64,000 nucleotides of DNA from an uncultured Actinomycetes bacterium (GTDB lineage: Bacteria; Actinomycetota; Thermoleophilia; UBA2241): NCBI GenBank assembly GCA_963767005.1, contig CAVYCN010000002.1, positions 288,001 through 352,000 of the forward strand, read 5' to 3'. This document shows, in pieces, positions 4,305 to 27,491 of the stretch (the first letter of the stretch is position 1; each line of letters starts with the position of its first letter). A program made the translations under genes and the position numbers. The notes below the pieces were generated by a model. The model saw nothing but the letters and a program-made list of their open reading frames with translations. It was not told the DNA's origin and did not search any database.

Positions 4305-4603
4305 GATCCGGGCTCTGTACGGGATCGCGGCGGCAAGGGGGGTGCCCGAACACTCCCGGCGACGCGGCCGCTCCGTCGCCCGAGTCGGGCAGAGGGGCGG
4401 CGCCGCGAAGGGGGCGGACGCATGGCGGCCCACGGCGACACGGTCCCGTGCGGAGACACGGCGAGGGTGGGCAACGAAATCGCCAGGGATTAAGCTAGCA
4501 CGAGGGCACGGCTGCGGGGTCGCGGTCCTTTCCCCGAGTGGGCCACGAAAGGAGCGGGTGGACACATGAACGCGGACACCACGATGGTCGAGGGAGGTGC
4601 TCG

Positions 4604-5551
4604 GTGAAGGTGCGGCTCTTCTTCGCTACCGACGTACACGGGTCCGAGGTCTGCTGGCGCAAGTTCATCAACTCGGCCAAGCACTACGAAGCCGACGTCC
4701 TCATCCTGGGCGGCGACATGACCGGCAAGGCGATCGTCCCGGTCGTGGCGACCGGCGCCGACAGCTGGCAGTACCACATGCAGGACCTGCAGCACGAGCT
4801 GCACGGCGACGACGAGCTCGCCAAGGGCGAGCGCCTGATCCGCGATCACGGTTACTATCCGGTGCGAGTCACGCACGACCAGGTGCAGGAGTACATGTCG
4901 CAGCCCGAGAAGCTCGACGACCTCTTCGCCCAGGAGCGCCGGCACACCCTCGAGGGCTGGGTCGAGTGGGCCGACGAGCGCCTCGCCGGCAGCGGCATCC
5001 AGTGCATCGTCTGTCCCGGCAACGACGACCATAGCGACATCGACGAGGTCCTCGCCACGTCCAAGGAGATCATCGTGGGCGAGGGCAACGTCCTCGACCT
5101 GTCGGGCGGCTACCAGCTTGTCTCGAGCGGGTGGACCAACCTGACCCCCTGGGACACGCCGCGCGAAGAAGACGAACCGCTTCTCAAGCGGCGCATCGAG
5201 GCGATCATCGCGCAGGCCAGCGCACCGGCCGACAAGCTCGTCCTCGGCCTGCACGCGCCGCCCTTCGACACGCAGCTCGACGTGGCTCCCAAGATCGACT
5301 GGGAGACGCTCACGGTGCAGGGCCAGGACACGGCCCACGTGGGTTCCACGGCGGTGCGCGAGATCATCGACCAGGTGCAGCCGCTGCTGTCGCTGCACGG
5401 CCACATCCACGAAAGCCGCGCCGCCGTGCGCATCGGGCGCACGCTTGCGGTCAACCCCGGCAGCTCCTACGTCGAGGGCACGCTGTCGGGCTGCGTCGTC
5501 GAGCTCGACGGCAAGAGCAAGGTCAAACGCTACCGGCTGACCATGGGATGA
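4604..5551 (+). CDS. Calcineurin-like (Icc-related) metallophosphoesterase, copy 1
   Basis: ATDVHG, GGD, GNDD, HAPP, GHIHE, NPGS; GTG start after GGGAGG. Confidence 0.88.
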   Translation: MKVRLFFATDVHGSEVCWRKFINSAKHYEADVLILGGDMTGKAIVPVVATGADSWQYHMQDLQHELHGDDELAKGERLIRDHGYYPVRVTHDQVQEYMSQPEKLDDLFAQERRHTLEGWVEWADERLAGSGIQCIVCPGNDDHSDIDEVLATSKEIIVGEGNVLDLSGGYQLVSSGWTNLTPWDTPREEDEPLLKRRIEAIIAQASAPADKLVLGLHAPPFDTQLDVAPKIDWETLTVQGQDTAHVGSTAVREIIDQVQPLLSLHGHIHESRAAVRIGRTLAVNPGSSYVEGTLSGCVVELDGKSKVKRYRLTMG

Positions 5552-5628: not shown

Positions 5629-7272
5629 ATGGCGACGAACACGCAAGCACCGCGGGCGCCGGAGCAAACGCTCTTCGTCCGCAAGGCGAGCGGTCTGGTC
5701 AAGGGGTGGTCCACGACCGACGGCTTTCGCTACTCGTTCTTCTCGACCAACATCTTCCTGGGAATCTGGGGCATCCTCTACTGTGTCTTCATCCCTGGAG
5801 GCAGCGTGTTCTGGGGTGTCGTCATCACGACGGCGTTCGTTCTGCTCGAAGTGTTGGTGTATTCGGGCCTGATCTCAGCCATGCCGCGTGCCGGCGGCGA
5901 CTATGTCTGGCAATCGCGCGTGTTTCACAGCTCGGTGGGCTTTGTGCTAGGGGCCACGGGCTGGTGGTTCATTCTCTGGCTCTGGATCCCCATCTACGCC
6001 GCCCTGTGCGTGAACTCGTTCATCAACCCGGTCCTCAGGATCGTCGGCGCCGGTGGCACCGCCAACTGGCTGCTCACGCACAACGGCGTCTTCGTGGCCT
6101 CACTTGCCACCATCGCGCTCGCCACGTATCTGGTCGCGATCGGCATGAAGGCCTATGCGACCTTCCAGAAGTGGGCCCTCTGGATCGGCCTGGCCGGCAT
6201 CGCCGTCGCCGGCGTCATCCTGCTCGTCACCTCGAAGGCCGGGTTCATCAGCGCCTTCAACCGTGAGAGCCTCCACCTCTACGGCGCGCACAACGCCTAC
6301 GCCGCGACCATCAAGAACAGCGGCGCCGGCATGCCGTCGTCGATGTTCAGCGGCACGGTCTGGCAGACCTTCAAGCTCATCCCCTTCATGTGCTTCTGGT
6401 TGCTGTGGCCGAACTGGGGCGCCACCCTCTACGGCGAGGTCCGCGGCGCCAAGGACTTCCGCAAGAACATCTACCAGATGGGTGGCGGCCTGCTGTCGGC
6501 GGCCGTCATAGTGATCATCTTTCTGTTCCTCGTGACCAAGACGATGGGCTACAAGTTCTTCATGGCCGCGGCCAACGGCTACATGGGCGTGCTCTACGGC
6601 TACATCAAGTCGACGCCGCACAACGGCGACTACCTCTCGCCGACCGCCATGATCGCCTGGGTCGTCAACAACTCGGCCTTCCAGGTGGTCCTCATCGCCG
6701 CCATCAGCCTGCTCGTGTTCGGCTGGTGGGGCACCGTGTTCCTCTCGTCGACGCGCATGATCTTCGCTTCGGCCTTCGACCGCATCCTGCCCGAAGGCGT
6801 GGCCAAGGTGACGTCGGGCGGCGTGCCGGTCGTGGCGCTTCTGTGCATGGTGATCCCGTCGATCATCGTGTCGGCCTTCTACGCCTACCAGCCTTCGTTC
6901 GTGCAGCTCACCTATGACGCCACGCTGGTCATCGCGGTCATGTTCCTCGGCTCCGGCCTGGCTTTCATGGTCATGCCGTGGCGCACCAAGACCATCTGGG
7001 ACAACTCGGCGCTGCCCAAGCTCAAGGCCCTGGGTGTGCCGATCATGTCGATCGTGGCCGCCGCCTACTCGGCGTTCATGGTGTTCAACCTCTACCTGTG
7101 GATCTACGACCCGACCAACACCTACGGCATCGGCTACAAGAACAAGAACTCGATGATCTTCATGGGCATCCTGTACGTCGCCGCGATCGCCATCTGGGTC
7201 GTGGCCTGGGCCGTCCGCAAGCGCCAGGGCATGGCGCTCGAAGCGGTCGCCAAGGAGATCCCGGTCGAGTAA
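5629..7272 (+). CDS. APC-superfamily amino acid/amine permease, copy 1
   Basis: About 12-13 hydrophobic segments; FVRKASGLV, AMPRAGGDYVWQSR, GEVRG, RMIFA..FDRILP; C-terminus EIPVE; AAGGAGG RBS. Confidence 0.9.
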   Translation: MATNTQAPRAPEQTLFVRKASGLVKGWSTTDGFRYSFFSTNIFLGIWGILYCVFIPGGSVFWGVVITTAFVLLEVLVYSGLISAMPRAGGDYVWQSRVFHSSVGFVLGATGWWFILWLWIPIYAALCVNSFINPVLRIVGAGGTANWLLTHNGVFVASLATIALATYLVAIGMKAYATFQKWALWIGLAGIAVAGVILLVTSKAGFISAFNRESLHLYGAHNAYAATIKNSGAGMPSSMFSGTVWQTFKLIPFMCFWLLWPNWGATLYGEVRGAKDFRKNIYQMGGGLLSAAVIVIIFLFLVTKTMGYKFFMAAANGYMGVLYGYIKSTPHNGDYLSPTAMIAWVVNNSAFQVVLIAAISLLVFGWWGTVFLSSTRMIFASAFDRILPEGVAKVTSGGVPVVALLCMVIPSIIVSAFYAYQPSFVQLTYDATLVIAVMFLGSGLAFMVMPWRTKTIWDNSALPKLKALGVPIMSIVAAAYSAFMVFNLYLWIYDPTNTYGIGYKNKNSMIFMGILYVAAIAIWVVAWAVRKRQGMALEAVAKEIPVE

Positions 7273-7392: not shown

Positions 7393-8205
7393 ATGGCACA
7401 GCCGTTCATCCTGCCCAAGGACATCCCGATCGAGCGTTACCCCAAGCCCGAGGTCTTCCTCTCCGAGGGCAAGCGCCTGACCGAGGAAGCGCAGAAGCGC
7501 GGCATCATCATGCGCGTCATGGGGCCGCTCGCGCTGCACTACTACTTCCCTGACCAGATCGACCTGTATGCCAAGCTCGAGCGCCTCGGTGAGCGCTACT
7601 TCACCGACATCGACTACGCGGCCTACAGCAAGACCGGCGGCAAGATGCGCGACTTCATGAAGGACATGGGCTACGAGTGCGACCTGCAGACCATGGCGAT
7701 GTCGGGCAAGACGCGGCACATCTACTACGCCGGCCCCGTGCCGATGATCGACGTGTTCTTCGACAAGCTCGACTACTGCCACGAGGTCAACTACAAGGAC
7801 CGTCTCGAGCTCGATCCGTGGAGCGTCTCGCTGTCCGACATCCTGCTGCAGAAGCTGCAGATCGTCGAGATCAACGACAAGGACCTGAAGGACATCGAGT
7901 ATCTGTTCATCACCTGCGAGATCGGCGACGACGACGATCACAAGATCAACCAGAACTACATCGCCAAGCGCTTCGCCGACGACTGGGGCTTCTGGTACAC
8001 CGCGACGCAGCTCAACCTCGATCGCGTCAAGAAGCACTGCGACACGGTGCCGGCCCTCACGCCCGAGATGCGCGAGCGGGTCAAGGCGCAGGCCGACAAG
8101 ATGATCGCGCGCGTCGACGCCGAGCCCAAGACCAAGGCCTGGACCAAGCGCGCCAAGAAGGGCGCCTCGAAGACCTGGTACAACGAGGGCTTCTCCGACT
8201 GGTGA
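7393..8205 (+). CDS. Uncharacterised protein with Pol-beta-type nucleotidyltransferase motifs, copy 1
   Basis: RVMGPLA...TDID (hG-x(n)-DxD), later IDVFFD; KLQIVEINDKDLKD; AAGGAGG RBS; paralogue at 13548-14360. Confidence 0.7.
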   Translation: MAQPFILPKDIPIERYPKPEVFLSEGKRLTEEAQKRGIIMRVMGPLALHYYFPDQIDLYAKLERLGERYFTDIDYAAYSKTGGKMRDFMKDMGYECDLQTMAMSGKTRHIYYAGPVPMIDVFFDKLDYCHEVNYKDRLELDPWSVSLSDILLQKLQIVEINDKDLKDIEYLFITCEIGDDDDHKINQNYIAKRFADDWGFWYTATQLNLDRVKKHCDTVPALTPEMRERVKAQADKMIARVDAEPKTKAWTKRAKKGASKTWYNEGFSDW

Positions 8206-8251
8206 CGCCCGCACGGCAGCGATCCCGAGAAGGAGGAAGGTTCAAGCGTCT

Positions 8252-9661
8252 ATGAAGATCCTCACCCGTATGGGCGACAGCTCCACGGTCGAGATCACCC
8301 GTGACGAGTTGCGCCACGAACTCGAGGAGGGCACCGAGTCGGCCGCCAAGAGGGCCAAGATCCCTCCGCTCACCGAGAACGAGCTCGACTACCTCGAGGA
8401 CATGTTCGCCTGCCCCAGCCGCATCTGGGGCGTCGAGCGTGGTCACGAGGTCGTCATGACGAAGGACGGGTGCGTCAACGCCCTGAACTCGTCGCGCATG
8501 TCGAGCGGCGTGACGGCGCCGGTCAACCGCGAGGTCGGCGTGCGCCTCTTCGAGTCGATGCTCGGCTTCGACTCGATGGAGGTCTCGCACAACGACTACT
8601 CGGTCAAGCCGCAGCGCTTCCTCAAGGCGCTCGAGCAGGTGCACATGGAGCTCCTGCAGGAGACCACGATCTTCCCCCTGCTCTACGGCTTCATGCCCAA
8701 CCTGGGGCTCTACTACCGGCCCGACGGCTCCTTCGAGAACCCCTCCGACCTGCTGCCACTGGGCAAGATCGACGAAGCTCGCAAGACCCAGGAAGCGGCC
8801 CTGCAGGCGTGCATGGACGACTGCATCCTGATGAGCGACTGCATGCTCGAGATGGGCGCCGACGGCATCGACTACGACACCGTGGCATCCACGGGCGACG
8901 CCGAGTTCCTCGCCGTCCTGAAGACGACCGAGCACGTTGCCAACGTCACCGGTCTGCCGGTCGAGATCGGCATGTCGGCCGAGATGGTGCTCGGCTTCCA
9001 CGGCGAGCTCGAATACGACGGCGTGCGGCTCGCCGGCCTGTGGCCGCACCAGCAGCTCCAGCTCTGCGAGAAGGCCGGCACCGCGATCTTCGGGCCGGTC
9101 GTGAACACCAACACCAGAAAGACGGTGCCCTGGAACCTCTCGCGGGCCGTCACCTTCGTGAAGGCCTGCACCGACATCGCCAAGATCCCGGTGCACGCCA
9201 ACGTCGGCATGGGCGTCGGCGGCGTGCCGATGTTCGAGACGCCGGCCGTCGACGCGGTGACCAGGGCCAGCGCGGCCATGGTCGAGATCGGCCGCGCCGA
9301 CGGGTTGTAGGTGGGTACAGGCGATCCAGCCGGCATGCACATGGCGCATCTGCTGGCCTCGTCGATGGGTGGCATCAGGGCCGCTGGAGATCTGGTAGCC
9401 CGTATGGAGCTCAAGAAGATGAGGATCACGGAAGCCAAGCAGTACGTGGCCGACAAGCTGCACGTCAGCCCGCTCGACCTGTCCGACCCGCTCGTCATGC
9501 GCAACCTGCGCGAGGAGCTCGACATCGGCGTCATCACCGGCGTGCCGGGCGTCGCGAAGGGCATGGCGGCGAAGTTCCGCATCGCCGAGCTGCTCGACAT
9601 CGAGATCAACTCGGTGGAGCAGTTCAAGAAGAAGACCGGCGTCACGACCGCCAAGGTCTGA
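8252..9661 (+). CDS. mtbB: Dimethylamine:corrinoid methyltransferase family protein with in-frame TAG (9308-9310), predicted pyrrolysine at residue 353; 469 aa
   Basis: TRMGD N-terminus, [33 protein letters not shown]-[TAG]-[27 protein letters not shown]; similarity to MtbB continues in frame across the TAG. Confidence 0.92.
9313..9401 (+). promoter_or_regulatory. Candidate PYLIS-like stem-loop immediately 3' of the amber codon
   Basis: GGGTACAGG pairs with TCTGGTAGCCC (bulged); TCCAGC 9325-9330 with GCTGGA 9383-9388; GGC/GCC; ATGC/GCAT; local excess of A/T-ending codons. Confidence 0.5.
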
Positions 9662-23830: not shown

Positions 23831-25282
23831 ATGGGATTCGCCGAGCTGCTCACGCCGCAGGAGGTCCGCCGCACGCACGAGGCGTCGCTCGAGGTACTCG
23901 AGGCCGTCGGCATCCTGGCGCACAACCCGCGGGCCCGCGACGTCTTCGCCAGGCACGGCTGCACGGTCGACGCCGAGACCGGCGTCGTGCGGCTCCCGGC
24001 CGACGTGGTCGAGCGCTACCGCGCGCTCGCGCCGTCGAGCTTCACGTTCCGGGGCCGCGACCCGAAGTTCGACCGCACCATCCCCGACGACGGCCCGATC
24101 GTCGTCACGGGCTCGTCGGCGCCCAACGTCGTCGACCCGGCGAGCGGCGTGGAACGGCGCGCGACGTCGGCCGACATCGCCACGATCGCGCACCTGATCA
24201 ACGAGCTGCCGGGCTTCGACGTCTTCTCGATCTCGACCCTGGCCGACGACGCGCCAGAGGGCCAGTTCAGCCTGAGCCGCTTCTACCCGGCCCTCAAGAA
24301 CTGTCTCAAGCCGGTGCGCAGCAACACGCCCAACATGGAGGACCTGCGTCAGGTGGTCGAGCTCGGCGAGATCATCGCCGGCGGCCCCGACGCGTACCGC
24401 GAGCGACCCGTCATCAACCACCACTACTGCCCGATGGTGAGCCCGCTCACCATGGACGTCGAGTCGACCGAGGCCGTCCTGTGGCTGACCGAGCGCGGCC
24501 TGCCGGTGTACACGACGGTCGTACCCAACGCCGGCCTGACCGCGCCGATGACCATGATGGGCTGCCTTGTCGTGGGCAACGCCGAGTTCCTCGCCATCAC
24601 CGTGTTCCAGCAGATGGTGAAAGAGGCGACGCCGGTCATCTACGCCAGCCTGCCGACCGTGGCCGACATGCGCACCGGCGCCTACGCGCCGGGCGCGATC
24701 GAGACCGGCATGCTGCTCGCCGCCCAGGCCCAGCTCGCGCGCTTCTACGACGTGCCGGCGGGCGGCTACATCGGGCTCACCAACGCCCACAGCAACGACG
24801 CCCAGGCGGGCTTCGAGACCGGCATGAACACCGTCCTCGGCGTGGCGGCCGGCGCGACCCTGCTTAACATGGGCGGTCTGTTCAGCTCGCTCATGGCGTT
24901 CGACTTCGCCAAGTGCGTGATCGACAACGAGATCGCCCTCATGGACAAGCGCGTCTGGCGCGGCCTCGAGTTCAGCGAGGAGAACCTGGCGCTCGCCGAG
25001 ATCGCGGCCGTCGGACCGGGCGGCAGCTACATGGGCCGCCAGCACACCAAGCAGCGCATGAAGACCACCGCCGTCCTGCCGCGCCTGGCCAACCGCGAGA
25101 TGCGGGCCCAGTGGGAGGACGCCGGGCGTCCCGACATCCACAGCCGGGCGCTGGCCGAGGCGCGCCGCATCCTGGCCGAGCCCAACCCGGCCGTGTGGGA
25201 CGCGTCGCTCGACGCGGCCGTCCGGGCGCGGTTCCCGGGCATCGTCGCCGGCGACGCCGTGCCGCTCGAGGCGCGGGTGTAG
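23831..25282 (+). CDS. MttB-superfamily methyltransferase, non-pyrrolysine
   Basis: HEASLEVLEAVG, SPL, TAPMT, DMRTG, DAQAGFE, VIDNEI, VGPGGSY; Leu (CTC 24776-24778) at the Pyl-equivalent position. Confidence 0.9.
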   Translation: MGFAELLTPQEVRRTHEASLEVLEAVGILAHNPRARDVFARHGCTVDAETGVVRLPADVVERYRALAPSSFTFRGRDPKFDRTIPDDGPIVVTGSSAPNVVDPASGVERRATSADIATIAHLINELPGFDVFSISTLADDAPEGQFSLSRFYPALKNCLKPVRSNTPNMEDLRQVVELGEIIAGGPDAYRERPVINHHYCPMVSPLTMDVESTEAVLWLTERGLPVYTTVVPNAGLTAPMTMMGCLVVGNAEFLAITVFQQMVKEATPVIYASLPTVADMRTGAYAPGAIETGMLLAAQAQLARFYDVPAGGYIGLTNAHSNDAQAGFETGMNTVLGVAAGATLLNMGGLFSSLMAFDFAKCVIDNEIALMDKRVWRGLEFSEENLALAEIAAVGPGGSYMGRQHTKQRMKTTAVLPRLANREMRAQWEDAGRPDIHSRALAEARRILAEPNPAVWDASLDAAVRARFPGIVAGDAVPLEARV

Positions 25283-25372
25283 CGAGCGCGCGGCGAGGAG
25301 CCTGCGAAGAGAAGCGACCGGCCGCGCACGAAGGCGGCCTGACCGGTCACCGTCAAGACCAAGGAGTAGCGC

Positions 25373-26020
25373 ATGGCGCACGAGGAGCTGTTCGAGCAGT
25401 TGAAGCACGCGATCATCGACCAGGACGAGGACGCCGTCCTCGCGGCCGTCGACAAGGGCCTGGCCGCCGGCGTCGAGCCGAAGACCCTGATCGACCAGGG
25501 CCTGCTGCCCGGCCTCAACGTCATCGGCGAGCAGTTCGAGGCCGAAGACATCTTCCTGCCCGAGCTGATGCAGGCGGCTCTGGCGTTCCAGGCGGCCATG
25601 GCCGTGCTCGAGCCGAAGATCAAGGAGAGCGGCAGCGAAGGTCCGAAGAAGGGCAAGATCGTGCTCGGCACGGTCAAGGGCGACCTGCATTCCATCGGCA
25701 AGAACATCCTCAAGCTGCTCTTCGAGACCTCGGGCTACGAGGTGTGGGACCTCGGCATCGACGTCGACCTGTTCAAGTTCGTCGACAAGGCCAAGGAGGT
25801 CGACGCCGACGTCATCGCCATGTCGGCCCTGCTCACCACCACCCTGGTCGGCCAGCGCGATGTGATCGAGGCGCTCAAGGGTCAGGGGACGCGCGAGAAG
25901 TACAAGGTCATCATCGGCGGCGGCGCTACCACCCAGGCGTGGGCCGACCAGATCGAGGCCGACGGCTGGGCCGGCACAGCCTACGAGGCCGTGAACCTCG
26001 TGGGCAGGCTGGTCTCGTGA
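25373..26020 (+). CDS. Methyltransferase cognate corrinoid (B12-binding) protein
   Basis: FLPEL, GTVKGDLHSIGKN (DxHxxG), SALLTTT, IIGGG. Confidence 0.94.
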   Translation: MAHEELFEQLKHAIIDQDEDAVLAAVDKGLAAGVEPKTLIDQGLLPGLNVIGEQFEAEDIFLPELMQAALAFQAAMAVLEPKIKESGSEGPKKGKIVLGTVKGDLHSIGKNILKLLFETSGYEVWDLGIDVDLFKFVDKAKEVDADVIAMSALLTTTLVGQRDVIEALKGQGTREKYKVIIGGGATTQAWADQIEADGWAGTAYEAVNLVGRLVS

Positions 26021-26108
26021 GGCAGTCCGCCGGCGGACGCGGCACGACGGTCACGGCCGTCGCGCGGCGCCGCCATGCTCCGTCGAACCCGACTTGCAGG
26101 AGAACGCC

Positions 26109-27491
26109 ATGATCGATCTGGTAGAGGTCTTCGAGCGCGCCGAGGTCGGCCCGCTCACCTCCGAGACCGACTACTACATGAAGCGCTTCGTCCCCAAGCT
26201 CGCCGAGGTCATCGCCCGGCACAACGTCAAGTGGGACAAGCAGACCATCATCAACTCAGACGACGCCCTCACCGACCGCGTCTTCGAGGCGGCCGTCGAC
26301 CTGCTCGCCGAGGCCGGCGCCTACTGCCCCGAGACCAACCGCGTCATGGAGTTCACGCGCGACGAGATCGTGACCGCCTGCGGCCAGTGCCCGACCGAGG
26401 CGACCTTCGGCGAGGGCCGCGAGCGCAAGGTCATGCGCGGCCGGCGCCCCGACACGACCGACGACCGCCCCTGGGTACACGTCGGCGGCGGCATCTACAC
26501 GACCGATGAGACGGTCTTCGTCGACACGGTCGAGAAGATGGCCTCGTGCAACATCGTCGACTCGGTCAGCGTGCCGTCGATCCTCCACCTGCGCGGCAAG
26601 GACGCCCGCGTGCGCTCGCCGCAGGAGGTGCTCTCTGCCTGCAAGACCGTGCGTCTCGCGCGTGAGGGCATCCGCCGCTCCGGCCGCGCCGGCCTGCCGA
26701 TCATCAACGGCATCTCGGCCGCCTCGCAGCCGGCCTCGATGTTCGCGGCCAGCTACCCCGACTTCGGGCTGCGCCCGAGCGACGGTTTTCTGATCGACTT
26801 TCTGTCGGAGCTCGTGGTGGGGTACGAGGCGCTGCAGAAGGTGGCCTTCTACAACAGCATCTCGGCCAACATCGGCTCGACCTCGACGCCGCTGTTCGGC
26901 GGCTACGCCGGCGGCGCCGAAGGCGTCGCCGTGACGGCCACCTGCTACATGATCATGGGCAACCTGATCTTCCGCGGCAGCTACCACTACAACGCGCCGC
27001 TGCACAGCAAGCTGCACCTGTCGTCGACGCGGCCGCTGATCTGGGCGATCGCCATGTCGAACGCCGCCATCGGCCGCAACATGGGCTACCCTATGGTGAA
27101 CCTGCCCTACCTGGGCGGCGGCTCGGGCACCAAGCAGTACCACTACGAGATGGCCTGCTACATGCTGGCCGTGGTCACCTCGGGCGGCAACGTCTTCTCG
27201 GGCCACCCGGCGATGGCCGTCCAGTCCGACTCGCTCGTGCCCGACGACCACAAGTTCCACGCCGAGATCGGCCTCGCCGCGAGCAAGCTCACCCGCGCCC
27301 AGGCCGAGCCGCTCGCGCAGCAGCTCTACCCGCTGTTCGGCGACAAGCTCAAGGACCCCGACAAAGGCCTGACCTTCCAGGAGGTCTACGACCCGCGCAC
27401 CAAGCAGATCGTGAACGCGCAGTACCAGAAGGCCATGGACGAGGTCCGCGGCGAGCTCGCCGGCATGGGCCTCGAGGTGGCCGTGTCCTGA
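26109..27491 (+). CDS. MtmB-family (monomethylamine:corrinoid methyltransferase-like) protein, non-pyrrolysine
   Basis: YCPETNRVMEF, FGEG, SP.EV, GRAGLP, PLFGGYAGG, G.TFQEVYD; no internal TAG. Confidence 0.85.
   Translation: MIDLVEVFERAEVGPLTSETDYYMKRFVPKLAEVIARHNVKWDKQTIINSDDALTDRVFEAAVDLLAEAGAYCPETNRVMEFTRDEIVTACGQCPTEATFGEGRERKVMRGRRPDTTDDRPWVHVGGGIYTTDETVFVDTVEKMASCNIVDSVSVPSILHLRGKDARVRSPQEVLSACKTVRLAREGIRRSGRAGLPIINGISAASQPASMFAASYPDFGLRPSDGFLIDFLSELVVGYEALQKVAFYNSISANIGSTSTPLFGGYAGGAEGVAVTATCYMIMGNLIFRGSYHYNAPLHSKLHLSSTRPLIWAIAMSNAAIGRNMGYPMVNLPYLGGGSGTKQYHYEMACYMLAVVTSGGNVFSGHPAMAVQSDSLVPDDHKFHAEIGLAASKLTRAQAEPLAQQLYPLFGDKLKDPDKGLTFQEVYDPRTKQIVNAQYQKAMDEVRGELAGMGLEVAVS

Follow-up and report, generated by a model that had tools for sequence, protein, structure and literature searches.

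The 64,000-nucleotide stretch of DNA analysed here (the window) belongs to a genome of 3.44 Mb in 19 contigs, with a GC content of about 71%, from a relative of the Thermoleophilia, and carries on its forward strand an mtbB gene (8252..9661) predicted to encode a dimethylamine:corrinoid methyltransferase. The reading frame starts with an ATG at 8252, behind a Shine-Dalgarno-like AAGGAGG recognised by its sequence (8230..8236), runs through a single in-frame TAG (9308..9310) directly after the residues ADGL, and then remains open up to a TGA at 9659-9661. Read through, it yields a protein of 469 aa with pyrrolysine (Pyl) at residue 353, which matches TIGR02368 and PF09505. Since the match to TIGR02368, the MtbB equivalog model, extends over residues 5-461 (526 bits, cut-off 369), the two ORF halves form one MtbB. 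The original prediction of a Pyl-type amber codon inside an MtbB gene, and of a 469-aa Pyl353 protein, is therefore borne out: both the frame and the alignment of orthologs place the TAG at the MtbB pyrrolysine position. Three genes upstream are co-oriented with mtbB, encoding a metallophosphoesterase-like protein (4538-5551), an APC-type permease (5629-7272) and a 270-aa protein without a family (7393-8205), all on the forward strand, and at 39 of 47 fully flanked loci homologs of the first two occur no more than 3 kb away from mtbB. Between 4538 and 18726, repeated modules of APC permease, metallophosphoesterase-like protein, 270-aa protein and choline-kinase-like phosphotransferase surround mtbB, an arrangement that may point to some substrate besides free dimethylamine. 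Elsewhere in the window (23831-27491), a non-Pyl mttB homolog, a corrinoid protein and a non-Pyl mtmB homolog stand in a row.

The amber codon is found at the Pyl column of the family in all 115 mtbB sequences with a residue there. At the same site TAG is kept at 70 of 70 related loci, in all eight mtbB paralogs of the host genome (one TAG each) and in each of the 71 MtbB matches that 13 of 15 family genomes yielded, and a 172-nt contig from a separate soil DNA run shows no difference from positions 9211-9382 of the window, TAG included. Conservation in relatives and paralogs, together with this independent contig, rules out a sequencing error. Contigs of relatives from RNA libraries span the TAG in three of four runs, such contigs being unable to show transcription or its level. 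As many as 119 of the 120 listed database homologs are no longer than 356 aa, and standard gene calling ends the protein after about 352 aa. A full-length homolog of 466 aa (P0106), whose alignment is continuous through the site, has Leu at the Pyl position and may be either a natural MtbB that does without Pyl or an artefact of translation. In the mtbB of one relative (L068:3001-4392), a compensated mid-gene frameshift probably represents an assembly indel. Sequence searches for a solved structure related to MtbB returned none.

No pyl gene or tRNA-Pyl lies in the window, as had been noted from the outset, and a search of the genome located the complete set on contig C3. There, pylSc (298 bits against a cut-off of 178), pylSn (122 against 51), pylB (429 against 348), pylC (279 against 248) and pylD (195 against 150) lie within 11 kb, all above curated cut-offs, and pylT, the tRNA-Pyl(CUA) gene, is at C3:242986-243058; a tRNA-Sec is encoded in the genome too. 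With the machinery present, the TAG aligned with the MtbB Pyl site and a sequencing error excluded, the expectation that the organism likely uses Pyl is upheld, and from the complete set we infer incorporation itself. Pyl is almost certainly inserted at the UAG of the window, judging from sequence evidence, and the decoder is most likely the host's own pylT/PylSn/PylSc/PylBCD. Apart from the pyl genes themselves, their neighbourhood encodes just one corrinoid protein and one radical SAM protein; the 292-aa radical SAM gene (C3:239185-240063 in the host genome, G000) is near pyl genes at 10 of 13 loci, mostly beside pylSn and the corrinoid gene. A second pylB with a pylD-like fragment (C4:545114-554336 in G000; L018) lies next to a Pyl-mttB whose GC3 is lower (0.85), with an integrase-like gene close by, and this region may be a separately acquired cassette. 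In a family genome that is 51% complete, one PylSc match has an internal TAG (G021:C9:10153-10875). Despite 100% marker completeness of the host genome, no EF-Tu-sized match was found among its GTPase matches and no tmRNA was called, so the assembly is probably without some genes.

Within the phylum, PylSc is concentrated in the family of the host. It occurs in 32 of 36 genomes of the same family (11 of 11 of the same genus); elsewhere in the class one of 24 genomes has it, and 400 genomes spanning the phylum gave a single case. Its site is syntenic in the family genomes compared, which suggests vertical inheritance. The apparently actinobacterial nature of the host is supported by the titles of the related loci, 66 of 70 being Thermoleophilia, Actinomycetes or Actinomycetota and four Bacillota. 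The surprise implied in the original prediction is smaller than it seemed, however, since Guo et al. (2022) had reported PylRS in two Actinobacteria (PMC9630628) and Ellenbogen et al. had reported Actinobacteriota MAGs expressing Pyl-type mttB and mtbB (10.1101/2023.07.09.548291, PMC10805028), as the accessible parts of both articles state; Pyl in Actinobacteria was thus correct but largely known beforehand. Literature searches for Thermoleophilia and pyrrolysine gave nothing beyond soil geochemistry. The host shares with the bacterial split PylSn+PylSc system of the Desulfitobacterium type separate pylSn and pylSc genes together with pylT and pylBCD, and differs from it in being family-wide (32/36) and at a syntenic chromosomal site, with 16 predicted Pyl genes and a tRNA-Sec in the same genome.

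These 16 predicted Pyl genes are TAG-interrupted methylamine methyltransferases, namely eight mtbB, seven mttB and one mtmB. Matches to the MttB family number 41 in the genome, seven with TAG and 34 without, some of the latter being fragments, and one of four MtmB matches has a TAG. With Methanosarcina barkeri MtbB (TIGR02368, PF09505) the window protein shares a full-length family match and an amber codon at the Pyl column; it differs in its actinobacterial host, in its eight paralogs at 47-71% identity and in the absence of mtbC beside the window copy, and its dimethylamine activity is predicted from the family. Corrinoid proteins, the corrinoid activator RACo and a pterin-binding protein, which we take to be AcsE/MtvA-like, are encoded elsewhere in the host genome. 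From knowledge of the family, Pyl would probably bind dimethylamine, or a secondary amine like it, as an adduct, and the methyl group would pass to a cobalamin protein encoded elsewhere and from there to folate via an AcsE/MtvA-like enzyme; Pyl is described as activating the amine via its imine (PMC9842639, in the part available). The host genome gave no match to MtrH and none to acetyl-CoA synthase, the latter being present in six of 11 congeners, and the absence of acetyl-CoA synthase leaves the fate of the methyl group unsettled.

It is important to stress that TAG is still a genuine stop in this organism. According to our own, crude gene caller it ends 965 of 2964 genes, or 664 of 1977 long, high-scoring ones (about 33%), and at orthologous C-termini, pylSc included, it interchanges with TAA and TGA. 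Both observations rule out Code 34, which the available text of its description defines as a genome-wide reassignment where TAG is not a stop and many genes are read through (10.1101/2024.09.30.615893). Because TAG is such a frequent true stop, the cell must cope with an ambiguous codon, and a discriminating cue would be useful. A naive scan for read-through was swamped by in-frame downstream genes; a stricter one, of low sensitivity, recovered seven of the 16 known Pyl sites and one other in-frame TAG candidate, and its yield leaves room for further Pyl proteins. A family 5 solute-binding protein (C13:17276-19063 in G000; L250:777-2564) is interrupted in frame by a TAG at residue 287, which falls in a variable loop, has neither hairpin nor TTR and may represent an error, a nonsense mutation or a Pyl that is neutral.

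At the 71% GC of the genome, synonymous-site selection becomes visible in the codons around the TAG. The codons at -2 and -1 of the window gene are GGG TTG (9302..9307, forward strand), the second being a rare Leu codon, and TTG or TTA is found at -1 in 71 of 71 orthologs, a share that does not exceed 0.33 in the other 30 Leu columns. Likewise, codon +26 is GGA in 70 of 70 orthologs, against at most 0.40 in the other 39 Gly columns. Genome-wide, TTG accounts for 2%, TTA for 0.1% and GGA for 2.9% of the codons of their own amino acid. In a wider mtbB set, four Bacillota loci included, all 114 genes carry GGA, and 106 of the 107 with Leu at -1 use TTR; Pyl-mttB genes have an A-ending codon at +24 in all 76 and TTR in all 25 Leu cases, and Thermoleophilia mtmB genes have TTR at -1 in 12 of 12. 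By comparison, TTR precedes TAG in 13 of 880 called TAG-ended genes, 12 of which are Pyl genes, so that the remaining case is one of 67 ordinary Leu-TAG stops of this genome; the true Leu-TAG stops of nine radical SAM and four pylSc orthologs are all preceded by CTN. In the 30 codons that follow the TAG, GC3 is 0.60-0.83, down from about 0.93. Like the hairpin described below, the -1 codon is under purifying selection and confined to bacterial Pyl sites.

This hairpin is a conserved mRNA element within the coding sequence (9380..9399, forward strand), in which arms 9380-9387 and 9392-9399 close an AGAT loop (9388-9391), the loop A being the third base of the near-invariant rare GGA codon. In the window copy, one of the covarying pairs, 9382/9397, is mismatched as C-A, and contigs of relatives regain pairing there by change on either side. 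Downstream of the TAG, the corresponding loops are AGAY at nt 81 in mtbB, AGGN at nt 75 in mttB and AGG near nt 117 in mtmB. After near-duplicate removal (74 of 114 mtbB and 50 of 76 mttB retained), an all-against-all mutual-information scan of mtbB ranked as its top two pairs the hairpin's two four-fold synonymous sites, +24.3/+29.3 (CG 35, UA 11, AU 10, GC 7, UG 6) and +25.3/+28.3 (CG 36, UG 20, GC 14, UA 3); in mttB, the first and third ranked pairs close the equivalent stem. RNAalifold predicted for mtbB the 6-bp hairpin helix alone, and for mttB the equivalent helix plus one 2-bp pairing. Changes on both sides of the stem number 50 against 11.9 in shuffled data for mtbB and 10 against 1.7 for mttB, a level reached by none of 500 shuffles in either family, and slid controls were all lower. 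As shuffles ignore kinship, a tree was built from upstream codons, on which co-changes amount to 13/19 and 9/11 in mtbB (null of 250 pairs, mean 0.29 and maximum 0.6) and to 5/6 and 3/4 in mttB (null maximum 0.7). Among 4186 variable four-fold pairs in mtbB, only the two hairpin pairs reach 93% pairing. G-U exceeds A-C in the stem pairs by 27 to 2, which points to sense-strand RNA.

In mtmB, none of three sequences has the hairpin at nt 66-90, and folding pointed to the AGG loop near nt 117, where the loop A is kept in 11 of 12 Thermoleophilia genes across four amino acids and in nine of nine newly added ones (one Thermoleophilia and three Bacillota loci were dropped from the mtmB set as duplicates or pattern misses). 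The mtmB stem is longer, less regular and imperfect; its 11 both-side changes against 3.5 (0/500 shuffles) refer to a structure hand-drawn from the sequences, for which RNAalifold gives a larger apical loop. Hairpins closer to the UAG (mtbB +1 to +6, mttB +6 to +12) show GGT enrichment but neither covariation nor selection by RNAalifold. Likewise, no AGRN hairpin is conserved 5' of pyl genes or past their stops, and thus there is no sign of autoregulation by this motif.

Defined strictly at nt 66-90, the hairpin is present in 110 of 114 mtbB and 71 of 76 Pyl-mttB, and in none of 47 non-Pyl mttB. In the host genome it follows all 15 Pyl mtbB/mttB sites, against eight of 864 other TAG stops and 17 of 1672 TGA stops. 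Among 61 distinct mtbB of methanogen type (93 metagenome matches), a label that stands for the DGI-stop-IGVGD motif and not for taxonomy, GGA is found in 23, pairing falls to 52% and 26%, and no covariation is seen. Bacillota mtbB keep both GGA-GAY and TTR in 10 of 10. The 35 Pyl-mttB of Bacillota are more diverse, with the hairpin at +75 in 16, shifted to +72 in four, found only at +249 in six and missing within 350 nt in nine; the six without the +75 hairpin (L210, L211, L214, L215, L217 and L221) have in common an AGAT-loop hairpin at nt +249. The hairpin is under purifying selection, confined to bacterial Pyl sites, and there is very little doubt that it is real. MttB, MtbB and MtmB have no significant mutual sequence homology, as stated in the part of PMC9842639 at hand, so that one loop type in the three families looks convergent.

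Several earlier models and searches touch on this element. The second helix of Rfam PYLIS_2 (RF02509, mtbB) is this very hairpin with the same 4-nt loop, and the window matches the model at 9308..9407 on the forward strand (56.5 bits, gathering score 36, partly through coding similarity). PYLIS_3 (RF02510, mttB) does not draw the equivalent mttB hairpin, and PYLIS_1 (RF01982, mtmB), a 100-nt model, ends before the +117 loop. None of the PYLIS models, which also score coding similarity, has the common AGRN loop, the -1 UUR rule or the contrast between bacterial and methanogen-type genes. As far as the accessible texts go, Theil Have et al. (2013) found mttB to be without a common structure (PMC3639795), the 2007 search by Zhang and Gladyshev found bacterial Pyl genes to be likewise without one (PMC1976440), Rother and Krzycki saw nothing PYLIS-like in mtbB (PMC2933860), and Shalvarjian et al. 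(2025) regard targeted Pyl insertion as lacking a known mechanism (PMC12626013). The portions of PMC13663744, PMC8318568 and PMC11764691 that could be consulted hold nothing further on cis signals for Pyl, and neither a common AGRN hairpin nor a -1 UUR rule was found in openly readable main texts, supplements aside. The mtbB hairpin was therefore already drawn in PYLIS_2, and the new part is the cis signal, that is, -1 UUR plus an AGRN hairpin common to three families.

Our main reading is that this MtbB most likely contains Pyl at its UAG and that hairpin and UUR codon likely bias the ribosome to insertion over termination, a proposal drawn from comparative sequence data to which we assign a probability of roughly 0.6. 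For the hairpin by itself, we lean towards enhancement of readthrough. With a ribosome waiting at the UAG, the downstream mRNA would be left free and the hairpin would fold; a putative loop-binding factor could then favour Pyl-tRNA over RF1, or shield the paused complex, and a P-site tRNA decoding UUR might weaken termination further. As one chain, from waiting ribosome through hairpin folding to loop factor and UUR effect, this account seems to us somewhat probable. More tentative, and a little less likely than not in its full breadth, is the idea of a true site-specific recoding signal in Pyl bacteria, in which an AGRN tetraloop 70-120 nt past the UAG plus a UUR P-site codon, convergent in three families and read by a putative factor, would keep TAG as a common stop alongside many Pyl enzymes. 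A candidate loop reader is PylSn, which in bacteria forms the separate RNA-binding half of the synthetase; no dedicated trans factor was recognised among nine GTPase matches (no extra EF-Tu-like protein), the release factors and the pyl neighbours.

Known recoding systems offer partial parallels. Bacterial SECIS elements, which SelB reads at UGA codons, are likewise stem-loops within the coding region, 3' of the recoded stop; they too conserve bases of the loop, and they keep a fixed spacing from the recoded codon. The AGRN hairpin is also a covarying stem-loop 3' of a recoded codon, far rarer after true stops (8/864 and 17/1672, as above); unlike SECIS, it lies much farther from the codon, at variable spacing, and has no dedicated elongation factor among the nine GTPase matches. 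The 3' RNA stimulators of alphaviruses and plant viruses, for instance a stem-loop that raised readthrough up to 10-fold, were similarly recognised from conserved synonymous sites in the roughly 150 nt 3' of the stop, according to the available text of Firth et al. (2011, PMC3159437), but they involve eukaryotic ribosomes, near-cognate tRNAs and larger structures.

The strongest competitor, which we consider possible although clearly less probable than readthrough enhancement, is plain competition between Pyl-tRNA and RF1 at the UAG, with a real hairpin that acts later as an element of mRNA fate or feedback. Exposed at UAG-stopped ribosomes, the hairpin would bind a nuclease, a Rho-blocking factor or a regulator and so tune the transcript or downstream genes to the supply of Pyl. 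All conservation and covariation data fit this account equally well. Its distance from the UAG is telling too: the hairpin lies 60-100 nt past the mRNA entry channel at a spacing that differs between families (75, 81 and 117 nt), which counts against a readthrough role and suits a ribosome-independent one. Archaeal and heterologous systems, in addition, insert Pyl with no need for a cis element, as reported in the parts of PMC12626013 and PMC2933860 consulted, so that cis elements are dispensable elsewhere. The nine Bacillota Pyl-mttB that lack the hairpin, the irregular mtmB stem and the mismatch in the window copy also weigh against the readthrough reading. The strict -1 UUR is, however, left unexplained by mRNA fate alone and points to selection on the decoding step, and the hairpin is also found where no operon gene follows mtbB, as in the window.

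The remaining explanations fare far worse. A motif that arose from protein constraint, from common descent or as a DNA palindrome, with no RNA function, is very improbable: amino acids do fix most stem positions and the sequences are related, yet the methanogen-type mtbB, most of which share the AAGDLV peptide with hairpin-bearing genes, show no pairing constraint, and repeated compensatory changes on the tree, strand-asymmetric wobble pairs and the arrival of three unrelated families at one loop would have no reason. Slightly less probable still is a split gene with TAG as true stop, whose C-terminal polypeptide is re-initiated from AGG/GGAG as an internal Shine-Dalgarno sequence. GGAG and AGGGG do look like ribosome-binding sites, and GTG follows the TAG in 93 of 115 mtbB; codon +1 may, however, also be GTA, GTC, GCG, GTT, CTC or ATA, the closest conserved ATG, 14 nt away from GGAG, gives way in some copies to codons that are no starts, and mttB has no conserved start there. 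Re-initiation, be it at the GTG or from an internal Shine-Dalgarno, is ruled out by this codon variation, the covarying stems and the 466-aa homolog aligned across the site. Finally, a pseudogene or assembly-error TAG, to which only the truncation by gene callers at about 352 aa lends itself, may be dismissed in view of the TAG at 70/70 loci and in 71/71 family matches, the complete pyl set and the identical independent contig.

The favoured reading, in which UUR codon and hairpin promote Pyl insertion, addresses the open problem of how a UAG meant for Pyl is distinguished in the cell from one that ends translation, and with an element of 16-20 nt plus a one-codon rule it can be tested with few synonymous point mutations. 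If the hairpin raises readthrough, it could improve amber suppression in bacterial genetic code expansion. At the level of genomes, standard gene callers truncate all Pyl methyltransferases of this family. The widespread soil and peat Thermoleophilia family constitutes a Pyl lineage with many methylamine methyltransferases, and it is a likely competitor of methanogens for methylamines.
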